A stretch of 64,000 nt of DNA from positions 32,001 to 96,000 of IMG/VR virus record IMGVR_UViG_3300026522_000001; one strand, given 5' to 3'. This DNA comes from a virus. Under the pieces are notes generated by a model that had not been told where the DNA came from, made no database searches, and saw only the letters and a list, made by a program, of their open reading frames with translations. Of the stretch, positions 1,322 through 26,273 are shown in pieces (within the stretch, counting starts at the first letter, position 1; the number at the start of each line of letters is the position of its first letter). The position numbers and the translations under genes were made by a program.

Positions 1322-4300
1322 TTAATAGCTACCAACAATCTTATTAGTAAACTTAGCACTACCTCTTGTAAAGTCAAGCATAATTCTCTGACCTCTTGGT
1401 GAACGCATAAAGTGTGCTATGGCTTCTTCTTGGTTGCTTACTAATGCTACATTCATATTTGTTGTACTACTTACATTTGTTCCTAAAGTACTAGCAAATG
1501 TACTCATTCCTCTTGCAGTCTCTTGTGCCGCAACTTCACCACCATCTGCAAATTTAGGAACATTTATAATATTTGGTATTCTGCTAAAGTTACCATTATT
1601 TACAGCATTTAAGAATCCTGTTCCGTATTTTCTTACGGCGCTTGCTTTAACAACAAATTCTCCATTACTCAACATCGCAGGTATACTGTCACTTGTTGAT
1701 GTTCCTTCACCTTTAACATTTCCACCTGTAGAGAATTTTCTTATTAGTCCTCCATCCTTATGCCCTTGTTCTTTAGTTCCTTGCCCTGAAGGTATATTTG
1801 CAGCTGCTGTTGCTATAACGTCTAGTGCTTCCTTTGCACTTTTAGCTGAATCACTAAGTTCATCTAAACTAGTCTTTACTTCTGTTGAACTTTGCTGAAC
1901 TGCACTAGATAGCTGTTGCAAAGATGTATTTGTTTGTGATATTGTTGTTTCTATTGAAGCATTATTTGTAGCTTGCTGTGCTTGTGCAGAAGCATTTGCT
2001 ACTGTTGGAGTAGATAATGCTGATTGTGATTTCTTCAATTCACTATATGTTTTATTTTGGTCTAATACTCTAAAGTATCCACCAGTACCATCTTGCATCC
2101 ATGTATTTTTTAAGTCATAATTCTTTTTGCTATTATCCATCTCAAAATAATGACCAGTTTCGGGATTTTTAAGGCCTAATATATCTGAGGAATCTCTATA
2201 TGTTTGTAGACCCTGTATTCCAGTACCATCTTCTGATGCTATAATATGTAGCTGTGACCTGATAGGTGAAAAATAGTCTGTTAAACCATTTTTATCTACA
2301 TTTTTATATTGATTAAGTGTATATATTTGCCCTGGTGTTACTTTAGACGCAAGATTTTCTGTTGTTGGTTGTCTACCAGACTCGTCTTTTACTGGAAACC
2401 ATTGTTGCATAAGCCCTTCAACAAGTCTCTTTGCAAAGAACTTTTGCATTGTCTTTAGGAAATCTACAACCATATTTTGTAGAGCTTCACCTAATGAATG
2501 AGCTTCATTTACCCCGTCTGTAAGGAATGTTACAAGCCCATCTTCTAGTGCTTGTCTTGCAGTTTCATGCGTTTCTTCTAATAAAGTTTTTATATGACTT
2601 AACATACCAGAAATTCTCTCTTTATTAGCTATCTCTTGCATCTGACTCATAGAAGCTGTCTGTCTTTCCATCTGTAAAGCTATATCAGCATTTAACTCAT
2701 CTATTCTTTTTGTTACATTAGCCACTTCTTGAGAGCCTTGTGGAAGTCTATCTCTTTCTGCCTGTTTCTTGCTTAATTCTTCTCTTAATCCTGCTATTTG
2801 TATCTGCCTACTCATATAGTCATTATTCATAGCGGCATATTGTTGTTTATATGCTTTATTTAATTCGGCATTTTTATAGGCTTTCATCTCCTTATTTGCT
2901 TCTTCTCTTTGAAGGTTTGTCATAGGTATATTTTCTAATACACTATTCATGTAGTCATACCTATCAGAAATTGCTTGTGTCATACCATTTAATATACTAT
3001 ATAATTTTTCTTGTGCACTTATTAGCTTTTTCTTTATTTCTTCTGCTTTTTCAGAATTACCCATAGCTGTAAACTCAGCATATTGCTTTACTAGAGCTTC
3101 CATCTGATAAGCAGGTGTTTGTTTAGCAAGATTTATTTTTGTTCTAAGTGTATCTAATTCTTTATTGTACTCTGATAATTCAACATCTGATTTTTTCTTT
3201 GCAACAAAATATGCTTGTTCTTTTATTTTTAGGTCTGATTTTTTCTGATTCCAAATCTTCTGTTCTGCAAGTAAATCATCTCTTGTAATGTTCTTACCTG
3301 CTGTTTTATCAGACATATCAAAGCCCTTATTATACTTAATAAGCATTTCATAGAACTTTTGATTTTCTTTACTAAATTCTTTTCTTACTTTATCATAGTC
3401 TGATTTAGCGTTTTGTGTATTTCTTATATTAGCATATTTACCAATATCAGAACGCTTTAAACCTTCTCTTAAAGAGTCTTGTAAGCCTTTTCTCCAATAA
3501 TAACTATCAAACTGTTTCTTATTCTCATTGTTGTTTCTATACGCCCACTCTTTATCATTAGCTTCTTTCCAACTATTATAATAAGTCTTATATGACTCGT
3601 TCATCATATCATTACCACGAAGTGCTAATAATCTTTGTGTATCTGCATGTAAGTCATTTAATACATTTAGCTTATCAACTATTCCTTGGTTCTTAATATA
3701 ATTACTATCATTTAACTTCTTATATGCACTTTGTAGTTCTTCTTTTGATGAAAGTCTATAATAATAATCACTAAGCATATTTCTACTTTCTTCCATTGAC
3801 TGCCAAGAGTCAACAATATTTTTATTATTACCTGTGTTATTAAATCTCCAAAGTGCATCATTAGCAGGACGTTCTTTATCATTTATTTCTCTATATTTTG
3901 GATTTGATTTATCCCATCCTATTGAATCCATTTCTGTTTTATATTTTTTATATTCAGAAAATAAATAATTAAATTCACTTACTAAATCTTTTGCATTATT
4001 TTGTGACTCAAATACTTCCATCTTGCTTGTAAGATTTTCATAAGCTTTCTTTAATTCACTAAACCCATTAGGATTAGATAGGAAATCATATATTTTTTGT
4101 CTCTTATCGAGTGTATCTCTTATTAAGGATATACTTTCAGGTTTATTTATATAACCTATATATTTTTCTGCTAATTCACCAAAATCTGTATCATAGTTTT
4201 TATATTTTCCATAAGCAACTTCATATGCACGATACTTAGCTGTTGTTTCAAGTCTACTTATATTAAAGTCAAGCTGTTTTTCTAGTGCATCTGTTACAAC

Positions 4301-23566: not shown

Positions 23567-23640
23567 TGGAGCGAATAATCAGAATCGAACTGACATATTA
23601 TCCTTGGAGGGGATATGTTCTACCATTGAACTATATTCGC
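23567..23640 (-). tRNA. tRNA-Gly(UCC) with an unusual C33
   Basis: Cloverleaf GCGAATA-TA-GTTC-AATGGTA-GAAC-A-TATCC-CCTCCAA-GGATA-ATAT-GTCAG-TTCGATT-CTGAT-TATTCGC-T-CCA. The discriminator is U, as in bacterial tRNA-Gly. Confidence 0.75.
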
Positions 23641-23642
23641 AT

Positions 23643-23716
23643 TGGATGCGGAAGAAAGAGTTGCACTTTCATCTCCTGCCTATGAAACAAGTATTCTTCT
23701 GTTAAACTATTCCGCT
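23643..23716 (-). tRNA. divergent tRNA with CAU anticodon (Met or Ile2-type)
   Basis: AGCGGAA..CTTGT-TTCATAG-GCAGG..GAAAG-TGCAACT-CTTTC-TTCCGCA-T-CCA. It has an A1/A72 mismatch, no GG in the D-loop, and a non-TTC T-loop. Confidence 0.5.
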
Positions 23717-23717
23717 A

Positions 23718-24036
23718 TGGTTGAGATAGATGGGCTTGAACCATCGACCTTTGGTTTATCTTGCTACTACATATTTCTATGTCCACAAAAAATATTGTGT
23801 TGTAGTCTGGGCTATATCTTCATCATTTCAGATGGGCAACGTATAGTCTCTACGAATCCTGTGCAATCAGTTTTCTCGGTATTGTCTTTAGCATTACCTA
23901 GTAAGAGTTTCACCGATATAGTTGCCTGCACTTTATACATTAACTCATTACATTAAATCTATTGCAAGTAATGATTCTGTATAAAGGCTCATATTATGTT
24001 TAAGACCACTGCTCTAACCTACTGAGCTATATCTCA
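23718..24036 (-). tRNA. tRNA-Ile(UAU) interrupted by a group I intron
   Basis: Exon 1 (24036-24002) and exon 2 (23759-23718) form a canonical 77-nt cloverleaf with CCA once 23760-24001 is removed. The resulting anticodon loop is CTTATAA. Confidence 0.8.
23760..24001 (-). ncRNA. group I intron (242 nt, no ORF) between anticodon positions 34 and 35
   Basis: The 5' exon ends in U and the intron ends in G. R-like GTAGAGACTATACG and S-like AAGATATAGCC elements are present. Helices P2, P2.1, P3, P4, P6, P7, P8 and P9 can be drawn by hand. Confidence 0.75.
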
Positions 24037-24040
24037 ATTA

Positions 24041-24115
24041 TGGTGGGCTTACTAAGAATCGAACTTAGATTGTGGGATTAGAAGTCCCATGTATTATCCT
24101 TTATACTATAAGCCC
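24041..24115 (-). tRNA. tRNA-Arg(UCU)
   Basis: GGGCTTA-TA-GTAT-AAAGGATA-ATAC-A-TGGGA-CTTCTAA-TCCCA-CAAT-CTAAG-TTCGATT-CTTAG-TAAGCCC-A-CCA. All stems are perfectly paired. Confidence 0.9.
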
Positions 24116-24338
24116 ATTATTACAAGTTTTTTCCTGTTTCCCCACCAAGCAGAATGGAAAACTTGAAAAACCATCTAACACACCCACATATTACTATGTA
24201 TATATCCATATGTAATGTTAGTCCCTAAGCCAGCTTACATTTTACTAGACGCATTTGATAAAGATTTATAAATCATATATGTATAACTTTTTTCAATTAA
24301 TTGCTGTGTGCGTCTATTCCCTTACCGCTTATATATTT

Positions 24339-24452: not shown

Positions 24453-26009
24453 TCAACAGTATTTGAAAATTTCTTCGACAACGTCATAGCGGGACTTATT
24501 CAGCTGTCTGCAAAAGGCTTTATATGGGTCAAGTTCATTACAACAAACCATATCTACAAGCTCTTTACTAAATCCACTCAAAAGAATTACACCATTTCTT
24601 GAGCTTTGAATTGGGACTGTACCATCATTATAACAAGAGACATTCCAAAAAATGAGTTTAGGAAGTTCATACCCACAATCCTTATACTTCTTCTCAATAT
24701 TCTCAAATAATGTGTCATTTTCTTGTATATTTTGATTGCGTAATGGGAATCCAAATGCATCTGTATCACACATAGCAGTATTAAACTGCATATCAGAAAT
24801 GATAAGAACATTCTTTGGCATATCTGCCTGTGTCGCATTACACTTCTTTGCTGTTTTTAGGATGAGGTCAAATACAGATTCAACATTAGTTGTACTACAT
24901 TCTGTATTTTTCATTAGCTTTTCTATATTGTCCCTTAATGTATTGCAGTTTACTGTAATCATCTTTGGGTTATTAGAAAATGCCATGATTTTATCTTTGA
25001 ATACACCTGTATTATTTTTTGCACAATACAGAGCAATTGAATCCCCAATTTCCATCGCTGAAACATTTTTTGATACATATGATAACATAGAGCCACTTCC
25101 ATCTCTAACAACAAGCGTATCAGCAAATGTTTTTGGTTTCTTTTGAGATTCCCAAAGACTCTCTAGGGTATTGTCAACAGGTTTCATTCCAATGCCAAAA
25201 AAATTAGCATCTTTCTCATATGCATGAACTATGTCATACAAAAACATAGAATTAGCATTTATCTTATTTTCGCCACGAGCTACATCAATAAGATATTCAT
25301 TTCTTCTAGCAAAATCGTGCTTAAGAAAAGAATCCTTATACTTGATATTTGCTAAAGATGGTACATGAGAGTAATCTACTTTATCCCATTTATTTGAACT
25401 TAACTTTACCTCTAAAACATCTAGCCCTTTTCTTAGTTTAGAAAGTGTTTTTCTATACTGTGAAGGAGACATTCTAAAATATTTTCTAAGTTCATTACCA
25501 ACTGCTACTGTTTTCTTTGAAGATGTATTGATACTCGGCATCCATTTTGCTAAAAGACTGTATGGCTTTCCATTGGAATAATTATATAAGTCATCATAAA
25601 GCTGTTCTTGCAAAATCCCTGCAATATATATTTTTAAGTCATCATATTTTGTATTTGCAAAAAGATAAATATAGTCGTCCCATCTGCCAAATTCAGGCAA
25701 GTCAACCGTGTAAATAAATCTATAGAAAATAGACATATCGATTTCTGTAAGATGAAGTAGCAACTTTCTAAAAGTATCTCTTTCACCCATTCCTTCTCTG
25801 ACATCTCTCAAAAAGAGAAGGAATCTTAATGTCATAGCTTTATCTTGATAATATGCTTCATCAAAAAGAGAATAATCTATTGGATTTTCCCTAAATGATG
25901 AAACTTTATAGAAAAAATCTAAAAGTTTACTGCCTGTTGTAGCATAAGCTACTGCACCATTTTCTGTTGTTGTTTTTACATTGTTTTCAAGATTTTCAAT
26001 AAAATTCAT
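24453..26009 (-). CDS. DUF2828-type protein with a Ro60/TROVE-like N-terminus and a C-terminal vWA domain
   Basis: The N-terminus TTENGAVAYATTGSKLLDFF resembles the TROVE entry motif (N-x-E/N-G-G/A-x-A-F/Y). The C-terminal MIDAS motif VVRDGSGSM is followed by ISDMQFN. This TROVE-plus-vWA architecture matches Ro60. Confidence 0.6.
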   Translation of the reverse strand: MNFIENLENNVKTTTENGAVAYATTGSKLLDFFYKVSSFRENPIDYSLFDEAYYQDKAMTLRFLLFLRDVREGMGERDTFRKLLLHLTEIDMSIFYRFIYTVDLPEFGRWDDYIYLFANTKYDDLKIYIAGILQEQLYDDLYNYSNGKPYSLLAKWMPSINTSSKKTVAVGNELRKYFRMSPSQYRKTLSKLRKGLDVLEVKLSSNKWDKVDYSHVPSLANIKYKDSFLKHDFARRNEYLIDVARGENKINANSMFLYDIVHAYEKDANFFGIGMKPVDNTLESLWESQKKPKTFADTLVVRDGSGSMLSYVSKNVSAMEIGDSIALYCAKNNTGVFKDKIMAFSNNPKMITVNCNTLRDNIEKLMKNTECSTTNVESVFDLILKTAKKCNATQADMPKNVLIISDMQFNTAMCDTDAFGFPLRNQNIQENDTLFENIEKKYKDCGYELPKLIFWNVSCYNDGTVPIQSSRNGVILLSGFSKELVDMVCCNELDPYKAFCRQLNKSRYDVVEEIFKYC

Positions 26010-26273
26010 CTTTTTTCTTCCTTCCTAGATACAAAATAATTATCCCATATTATTATTTATTATTGATTGCTGTATGTATCTAAATAAATTAAAATTATAT
26101 TATAAATACTTTAGGTTATGAATACCAAAACAAATCAATACAATTCCTGAAATTAGAATAAGACTAACTAGCATTATATATCTCCAAAAAGCAATTTGCT
26201 TTAACATCTATTGGTTTCATCATTTTGACTACTTATGCTATCCACCACGTAAAGGTTGATGTTACTGGATAAC

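Follow-up and report, generated by a model that had tools for sequence, protein, structure and literature searches.

The group I introns found in transfer RNA (tRNA) genes of bacteria and plastids are compact ribozymes of ~200-250 nt that contain no open reading frame (ORF) and interrupt the anticodon loop, and the insertion point known for those of tRNA-Leu(UAA) lies between U34 and A35. In phages, theta ribozymes have already been linked to tRNA maturation. According to a 2014 review (PMC3984707), all phage introns then known resided in protein genes, despite the many tRNA genes of phages. A 2018 preprint on Lak megaphages (Devoto et al., 10.1101/356790) described phage tRNAs with conserved 'enigmatic introns', which were found with the eukaryote settings of tRNAscan-SE, were tested against Rfam and stayed unclassified, one of them with a possible tRNA. 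Here we analysed a stretch of 64,000 nt of viral DNA, referred to as the window (IMG/VR record IMGVR_UViG_3300026522_000001, positions 32,001 to 96,000). Positions 24036-23718 on its minus strand very probably constitute a phage tRNA-Ile(UAU) gene interrupted at U34/A35 by a compact, ORF-less group I intron of the kind seen in bacteria and plastids, which is predicted to be spliced.

The letters of this segment were identical to those quoted in an earlier note on the same DNA, which had proposed a split tRNA-Ile(UAU) with a 242-nt insert at 24001-23760 and had named intron-aware tRNA detection as a way to check it. ARAGORN run in intron mode returned exactly these boundaries. It called a tRNA-Ile(tat) of 77 nt at 24036-23718, interrupted at 24001-23760 by an intron of 242 nt, with the junction gtctt|ataaa. 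The two halves ligated by hand were again called tRNA-Ile(tat), in line with the anticodon UAU and the insertion at 34/35 given in that note. The ligated 77-nt product forms a canonical cloverleaf with a 7-nt anticodon loop, in which U8, G18 G19, U33, the TTC loop, A73 and CCA are all present. The insertion separates U34, the first anticodon base, from A35, the second; the raw position 35/36 reported by ARAGORN corresponds to canonical 34/35, because the D loop has one extra base.

Default ARAGORN and an Rfam scan of the window at gathering thresholds yielded four tRNAs only, without the split tRNA-Ile, which leaves a gap of 324 nt between tRNA-Arg and tRNA-Met. In intron mode, the entire window gave a single split tRNA, the Ile, and 20 composition-matched random 64-kb sequences gave zero calls. 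The call is therefore not a chance result. The splice boundary could slide by one base with the same product, as intron and exon 2 both begin with A. Only the boundary above yields a U before the 5' splice site together with a G as final intron base, the group I rule invoked in the earlier note.

As claimed, the insert proved to be ORF-less: no ORF on the intron strand exceeds 42 aa, and hence the window copy carries no intron-encoded homing endonuclease. A permissive scan of 23650-24120 with the Rfam group I model RF00028 gave a match of 32.5 bits (E = 1.3e-6 in a 471-nt search) that was aligned from P3 to P9, with the R and S elements of P7 matched almost perfectly. The sequences of these elements, GUAGAGACUAUACG and AAGAUAUAGCC, align to the P7 columns of the model and are invariant in 40 relatives, partly by ascertainment; the P7 with a bulged A that had been drawn from them agrees with this alignment. 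Unconstrained folding of the 242 nt by ViennaRNA resulted in -54.1 kcal/mol, compared to -40.7 +/- 3.8 for shuffled sequences (z = -3.55, 0 of 200 as stable). The minimum free energy (MFE) structure holds P2/P2a, P3, P4, P5/P5a, P6/P6a, P8 and a branched P9 with a GAAA tetraloop. The P7 pseudoknot alone is missing from it, and the method cannot predict pseudoknots. P1, P2, P3, P4, P8 and P9 of the earlier note are present, whereas some of its helix names and lengths had to be revised: its P2.1 (CATTAC/GTAATG) is nested inside P2 and is therefore the extension P2a, its P6 (CTG/CAG) is P6a, the true P6 being GAA/UUC (23875-23873 with 23856-23854), and its P4 (TCGGT/ACCGA) actually comprises 6 bp, UCGGUG/UACCGA.

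In the predicted P1, GAGCC of the internal guide pairs with U34 (G.U), U33 (A-U) and C32 (G-C), skips position 31 and then pairs with G30, which places a U.G wobble, formed by U34 and the G of GAGCC, at the 5' splice site. The adjacent UAU of the guide pairs with the exon-2 bases A35 U36 A37 to form P10. Subgroup IC3, to which bacterial tRNA-type introns belong, is characterised at its periphery by L9 and L2 tetraloops that dock into receptors in P5 and P8 and by the lack of P2.1 and of P7.1/7.2. The window intron has no P7.1/7.2, its GAAA tetraloop is located in P9, and its P5 is without the 11-nt receptor motif seen in several relatives.

Close relatives at the same genomic slot allowed a direct comparison. 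The IMG/VR contigs L003 and L004, with TerL 97% and 94% identical to that of the window, share the Arg-Ile-Met-Gly tRNA cluster. L003 has an uninterrupted 77-nt tRNA-Ile(UAU) at the slot (3934-4010) with a sequence differing from the window's, and homology between the two ends at both edges of the tRNA-Ile gene. In L004, the tRNA-Ile(UAU) (2909-3909) is split at the identical point, GGTCTT|AAA...AAG|ATAAACC, by an insert of ~923 nt. Compensated changes relative to the window were found in its acceptor stem (TGAGATA/TATCTCA to AGTGAGG/CCTCACT), D stem (GCTC/GAGC to GCAC/GTGC) and T stem (GATGG/CCATC to GGCGG/CCGCC), and likewise in P3 (GGCAAC/GTTGCC to TCACAC/GTGTGA) and P8 (CATC/GATG to CACC/GGTG) of the intron. 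The extra length of the L004 intron is due to a 252-aa ORF matching Pfam HNH_3 (E = 3.7e-14, above the cutoff), located where the window intron has the P2/P2a hairpin. From these sequences, the same site hosts what appears to be a mobile, endonuclease-bearing intron in L004 and an ORF-less form in the window. Because the same-site relative carries an HNH homing endonuclease, the window intron looks like a copy of a mobile intron without the endonuclease gene. Three different tRNA-Ile(UAU) bodies thus occur at one slot among phages with 94-97% identical TerL, and since homology in the flanks does not continue into the gene, the tRNA-Ile gene, with or without intron, has been swapped as a cassette.

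The 21-nt ligated junction AGTGGTCTTATAAACCAAAGG was present in 13 metagenome contigs, each time within an intact tRNA-Ile(UAU) gene and usually in a tRNA array; these 13 genes have the anticodon arm in common with the window. Exact-match searching of IMG/VR with the 25-nt ligated junction or with a 19-nt P7/P3 string returned nothing, and GenBank phages gave no match in a megablast search with a 24-kb portion of the window. Two further loci from a scan for the 17-nt 3' junction, L006 and L007, lay within coding sequence and were discarded as chance matches.

Base-pair covariation was examined across a family defined by a signature that the window and L004 have in common (ATCGGTGAA, 40-70 nt, CGTAGAGACTA), which matched at least 119 IMG/VR stretches. 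P3 was assessed without alignment, in a fixed register anchored on the two motifs, and 125 family copies reduced to 60 distinct strand pairs. Full pairing was seen for 31 of these 60 combinations, with 28 different 5' strands, and mean pairing was 4.72 of 6, against 2.85 +/- 0.13 when partners were shuffled and 1.7-2.65 when the register was shifted. In addition, 40 compact cores were aligned by MAFFT, with no fitting to structure, and the proposed pairs were counted on that alignment. Standard pairs filled 79.3% of the cells, as compared to 68.8% with shuffled partners and 37-44% with slid ones. Double-sided changes affected 173 cells where 69.5 were expected, a value reached by 0 of 500 shuffles, and the covariation score was 0.275 versus 0.124. 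These changes were distributed over P3 (6 of 6 pairs), P5/P5a (6 of 7) and P6/P6a (4 of 6); P4 is paired in 100% of the 40 sequences and is invariant by ascertainment. The window has A-U at two pairs of P6, the first of which (column pair 75/113) is GC in 38 sequences and AU in 2, while the second varies. At the level of sequence comparison, this covariation across the family settles the group I identity that the Rfam score had left undecided.

P1 and P10 were compared across relatives in a motif-anchored guide table. P10 tracks the anticodon: AUA-UAU is found for Ile, also in a second, independent tRNA-Ile(UAU) (L079), AAA-UUU for Leu(UAA) and AUA-UGU for CAU-type tRNAs. The P1 part of the guide changes as well, from GAG with the exon CUU to GGG with the exon CCU of tRNA-Thr. 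Most family members begin after U and finish ...TAGTGGTAAG. No convincing P1 was found in the motif-anchored table for the UCA-type, L051, L054 and L126 introns. L058 (5817-6784) and L101 (2212-3219) each have a tRNA with the anticodon CAU (Met or Ile2) that is interrupted by an intron of ~900 nt. The 5' exon ends there in C and not in U, so that the splice-site pair would be C-G instead of the U.G wobble.

Group I introns are removed by two-step transesterification. For the window intron, transcription of the tRNA cluster would be followed by folding of the intron into its P3-P8 core, and the guide UAU|GAGCC would align both exons via P1 and P10. Free guanosine bound in P7 would attack after U34, and the freed 3'-OH of U34 would in turn attack after the terminal G at 23760. 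CUU would then be joined to AUAA, restoring the 7-nt anticodon loop in a tRNA of 77 nt with CCA already at its end, and the mature tRNA would read AUA. Self-splicing and the exact RNA junction are what we infer by analogy with this established chemistry. The window has a GC content of 31.7%, ATA makes up 35% of the Ile codons in its long ORFs, and AGA accounts for 69% of its Arg codons. This usage matches the phage's own Ile(UAU) and Arg(UCU) tRNAs and, as circumstantial evidence, suggests a job for the tRNA-Ile.

The intron family extends well beyond this slot. ARAGORN placed 22 of 129 cores in same-strand split tRNAs and, in bacteria, the signature lay in split tRNAs in 44 of 120 sampled contigs (L134-L253; the other 76 were not placed), both being rough counts among the matches listed, obtained with a window-seeded signature, and not prevalence estimates. 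The split tRNAs behind the first count are of the types Arg-UCU, Leu-UAA, Ile-UAU, Thr-UGU, CAU-type and UCA. ARAGORN gave wrong boundaries or anticodons for several long or atypical introns (L004, for example, was called Ser-tga), and L038, L073, L094, L108, L111 and L119 as called by this program are without the terminal G. In bacterial genomes the signature is abundant, mostly in metagenome-assembled genomes of candidate phyla radiation (CPR)/Patescibacteria and Gammaproteobacteria, and the split tRNAs there include Asp(GUC), Thr(UGU), Arg(UCU) and CAU-type. Members of the family were also detected in deposited phage genomes (Table 1), among them that of a cultured phage. The split tRNAs are unannotated in these genomes, and LR756508 has two in one cluster. 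In Atu_ph07, the ORF AUZ94936.1, annotated as hypothetical protein, overlaps the intron of the split tRNA-Leu(UAA). Just downstream of the two-split-tRNA cluster of LR756508, a strong match to the HEARO RNA (RF02033, 144 bits) was observed (L132 2160-2384).

Protein genes are interrupted by related sequences as well. In blastn, the P4-P6 region of the window intron matched, at 89-93% over ~45 nt, unannotated stretches in split phage protein genes, namely the split RNR-beta gene of Yersinia phage fHe-Yen9-04 and the split DNA polymerase gene of Vibrio phage phi 1, the latter with an HNH ORF. Further members split DnaB in crAss-like phages (Kolpuevirus, cr111_1) and carry GIY-YIG ORFs.

In the IMG/VR contigs L119, L082, L012 and L120, family introns interrupt tRNAs with the anticodon UCA, which read the stop codon UGA. 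When TGA was treated as sense, open-frame coverage rose from 0.45 to 0.92 in L119, from 0.75 to 0.96 in L082 and from 0.49 to 0.71 in L012, and it barely changed, from 0.74 to 0.82, in the window. Because of these UCA copies and the raised open-frame coverage, some phages that are apparently TGA-recoded appear to carry a group I intron inside a suppressor tRNA.

The existence and spread of a compact intron lineage in phage tRNAs are largely shown by these data. Judging from its guides, the lineage may move among tRNAs with U34, such as Ile-UAU, Arg-UCU, Leu-UAA, Lys-UUU and UCA suppressors. That it is a mobile lineage specialised on phage tRNAs, its guide reading C32-U33-U34 and the anticodon, and that it moreover has a functional role, we consider unlikely. 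The corresponding explanation for the window is that the intron does splice and has been kept for a function, either gating the supply of tRNA-Ile(UAU) or shielding the gene from a tRNA-targeting endonuclease of co-infecting relatives. The HNH-carrying form at the same site in a close relative, the exchange of the tRNA-Ile gene as a cassette among three close relatives and the interrupted UCA suppressor tRNAs of apparently TGA-recoded contigs speak in its favour. However, nothing in the analysis shows regulation, the spliced tRNA is identical to the product of an uninterrupted gene, and ORF-less introns are the expected decay products of the homing cycle, which makes retention for a function a doubtful proposition. 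As speculation, introns of this family might gate the timing of the supply of a phage tRNA or of a code-switching suppressor tRNA, or might serve phage-phage competition via endonucleases that cut intron-less tRNA genes.

Several points count against the reading preferred here. The RF00028 score is below the curated gathering threshold of 50 bits and the intron was missed in the whole-window scan, so that the Rfam check proposed in the earlier note, although it produced a match, came out as neither a clean pass nor a clean fail. P1 is short: three pairs in a row are followed by a mismatch at position 31 of the tRNA and then by one or two further pairs. The anticodon stem or a helper protein may therefore be needed for splicing. 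As the signature was taken from the window and L004, P4 and the P7 5' strand are invariant by construction and thus uninformative. Finally, an intron-less allele with the same tRNA body was not found, the 13 intact genes sharing 46-58 of 77 positions with the window. The low score and the weak P1, together with the absence of the endonuclease ORF that L004 has, could be taken as signs of a decayed, non-splicing group I intron within a tRNA-Ile(UAU) pseudogene. This we regard as improbable, since all core helices are intact in the window and its deviations from consensus are compensated (P6 G-C to A-U at one pair, P7 G.U to G-C), while the U.G pair, the terminal G, P10 and the bulged A are present, both exons keep a perfect cloverleaf, and the phage makes heavy use of ATA. 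In addition, none of the compact tRNA-type relatives reaches the curated RF00028 threshold, clearly conserved ones included. The low score is therefore typical of this sub-family and not a sign of decay, and the insensitivity of RF00028 to it explains why pipelines miss these introns. Among twelve related loci, the sole sequence to pass RF00028 (72 bits) was a 799-nt intron in L059 (1777-2660, in a Leu(UAG) call), a contig that also has a tRNA-Thr(UGU) with a 194-nt intron (543-812).

To our knowledge, bacteria have no tRNA-splicing endonuclease, which argues against a protein-spliced bulge-helix-bulge intron. Such an intron, or an unrelated insertion between tRNA halves, might be suspected as Devoto et al. 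could not classify the Lak phage tRNA introns, but it has a negligible probability here and is effectively refuted by the covariation of a full group I core, the more so as the site is 34/35 and not the canonical 37/38, and as the junctions are occupied by P1 and P10 with no bulge-helix-bulge fold visible by eye (no dedicated motif search was run).

Table 1. Positions of the split tRNA-Ile(UAU) gene, the predicted elements of its intron and neighbouring tRNAs in the window, and split tRNAs in deposited phage genomes
Sequence	Feature	Position	Strand	Basis or remark
Window	tRNA-Ile(UAU) 5' exon: acceptor 5' strand, D arm, anticodon-stem 5' strand, C32 U33 U34	24002..24036	-	ARAGORN intron mode, spliced product
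Window	tRNA-Ile(UAU) 3' exon: A35 U36 A37 A38, anticodon-stem 3' strand, variable loop, T arm, acceptor 3' strand, A73, encoded CCA	23718..23759	-	ARAGORN intron mode; ligated junction contiguous in 13 intact genes
Window	242-nt ORF-less group I intron	23760..24001	-	RF00028 match, covariation, MFE fold
Window	Internal guide sequence UAU|GAGCC	23986..23993	-	Same pairing pattern in relatives
Window	P2/P2a hairpin CUUUAUAC...GUAUAAAG, inner CAUUAC/GUAAUG	23931..23986	-	MFE fold, L004 comparison
Window	P3 5' strand GGCAAC	23921..23926	-	Compensatory changes at all 6 pairs
Window	P4-P5-P5a domain: P4 UCGGUG/UACCGA enclosing P5/P5a	23876..23916	-	Covariation, blastn matches to phage protein-gene introns
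Window	P6 (GAA/UUC) and P6a (CUG/CAG)	23854..23875	-	40-sequence alignment
Window	P7 5' strand GACUAUA with bulged A; R element; putative guanosine-binding helix	23842..23848	-	Rfam alignment, invariant columns
Window	P3 3' strand GUUGCC	23835..23840	-	Compensatory changes at all 6 pairs
Window	P8 hairpin CAUC-UGAAAU-GAUG	23821..23834	-	MFE fold, relatives; CACC/GGUG in L004
Window	P7 3' strand UAUAGC (S element)	23811..23816	-	Rfam alignment, relatives
Window	Branched P9 (ACUA.../...UAGU), two hairpins, one with GAAA tetraloop	23764..23806	-	MFE fold
Window	Terminal (omega) G of intron	23760..23760	-	Sequence
Window	tRNA cluster Arg(UCU), Ile(UAU) with intron, Met(CAU), Gly(UCC)	23567..24115	-	Between DUF2828 gene and small terminase gene
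Window	tRNA-Arg-UCU	24115-24041	-	Default ARAGORN, Rfam
Window	tRNA-Met-CAU	23716-23643	-	Default ARAGORN, Rfam
Window	tRNA-Gly-UCC	23640-23567	-	Default ARAGORN, Rfam
Window	tRNA-Leu-CAA	26355-26273	-	Default ARAGORN, Rfam
Agrobacterium jumbo phage Atu_ph07 (cultured; MF403008)	Split tRNA-Leu(UAA), 278-nt intron	L129 1253-1614		
LR756501 (735 kb)	Split tRNA-Leu(UAA), 205-nt intron	L130 1397-1687		
LR745208 (485 kb)	Split tRNA-Ile(UAU), 210-nt intron	L131 1430-1716		Guide TATGAGCC
LR756508 (484 kb)	Split tRNA-Lys(UUU) and tRNA-Arg(UCU), introns of 193 and 175 nt	L132 1362-1630 and 1761-2012		

The surroundings of the tRNA cluster are those of a tailed phage, with small and large terminase, portal, scaffold and major head genes just downstream. 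By TerL, the nearest cultured phages show only ~46% identity and have Clostridium, Oenococcus or Streptococcus as hosts; the 'gut-type' of the earlier note could not be confirmed. Directly upstream of the cluster, between it and tRNA-Leu(CAA), lies a gene of 518 aa (24453-26009, minus strand) that matches Pfam DUF2828 and DUF7788, weakly VWA_2, and PHROG 850, 'RNA-binding protein' (E = 4e-117). The hepatitis delta virus (HDV)-like ribozyme family RF02682 matched weakly at 26216-26273 on the minus strand, with 22.2 bits where the threshold is 44 bits (E = 0.033 for 251 nt searched). This match begins at the base right after the discriminator of tRNA-Leu(CAA), which encodes no CCA; L003 and L004 have a different tRNA-Leu, without the HDV-like element. 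A Y RNA was considered for the Arg/Ile boundary and rejected: the weak YrlA match (19.5 against 69 bits) reflects tRNA-likeness, the ends of the acceptor stem are free and include CCA, and a group I core lies within the insert.

Full-text searches of the literature, subscription-only papers excluded, yielded no paper in which a phage tRNA intron is assigned to group I. Neither the huge-phage paper nor that on Atu_ph07 contains the word intron. A tRNA-borne phage intron is likewise unmentioned in papers on crAss-like, recoded and jumbo phages and on Bastillevirinae introns, as well as in those on the 2025 group I intron database and on theta ribozymes. The earlier note had called such an intron unusual. 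This holds with respect to the 2014 review, but tRNA-borne copies are frequent in the phage contigs scanned, and unclassified phage tRNA introns had already been reported in the 2018 Lak preprint.

Split tRNAs of this kind escape the standard procedures (tRNAscan-SE with bacterial settings, ARAGORN at its defaults and Rfam with the curated threshold), and phage tRNA inventories are therefore undercounted. The textbook-level statement that phage introns occur only in protein genes is revised by the present set, which also offers a candidate class for at least some of the 'enigmatic' phage tRNA introns. The covariation of guide and anticodon shows the way in which a single lineage of introns can switch its target from one tRNA to another. 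Finally, the copies in UCA suppressor tRNAs raise the idea that ribozyme splicing may act upstream of a genetic-code switch, beside theta ribozymes.

Compared with described systems, the window intron shares its core signature, ATCGGTGAA...CGTAGAGACTA, with bacterial tRNA introns. A short P1 is also found in the Anabaena intron, the splicing of which reportedly requires exon pairing in the anticodon stem, as the title of a 1993 paper by Zaug et al. has it. In Azoarcus, the intron resides in tRNA-Ile(CAU) and follows the anticodon, whereas in the window it lies inside the anticodon of tRNA-Ile(UAU). The cores of Atu_ph07 and LR756501 may resemble the Azoarcus sequence. The phage tRNA-Leu(UAA) copies of the family are inserted at CTT|AAAATC. 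The introns of phage protein genes (T4 td/nrdB/nrdD, SPO1, Twort, Bastille, crAss-like) belong to the same ribozyme class and show the same association with homing endonucleases as the window's family; the difference is that the interrupted gene here is a tRNA. With respect to the Lak introns, known here by their description in the preprint, the window insert is identified as group I and resides in a phage of ordinary architecture. The closest functional relatives of the window intron are the bacterial and plastid tRNA introns. These are part of a cell or organelle genome, whereas the host genome of the window intron is that of a tailed phage, and the novelty lies in this setting, a phage tRNA gene, and in the large, largely unannotated set of phage tRNA introns to which it belongs.

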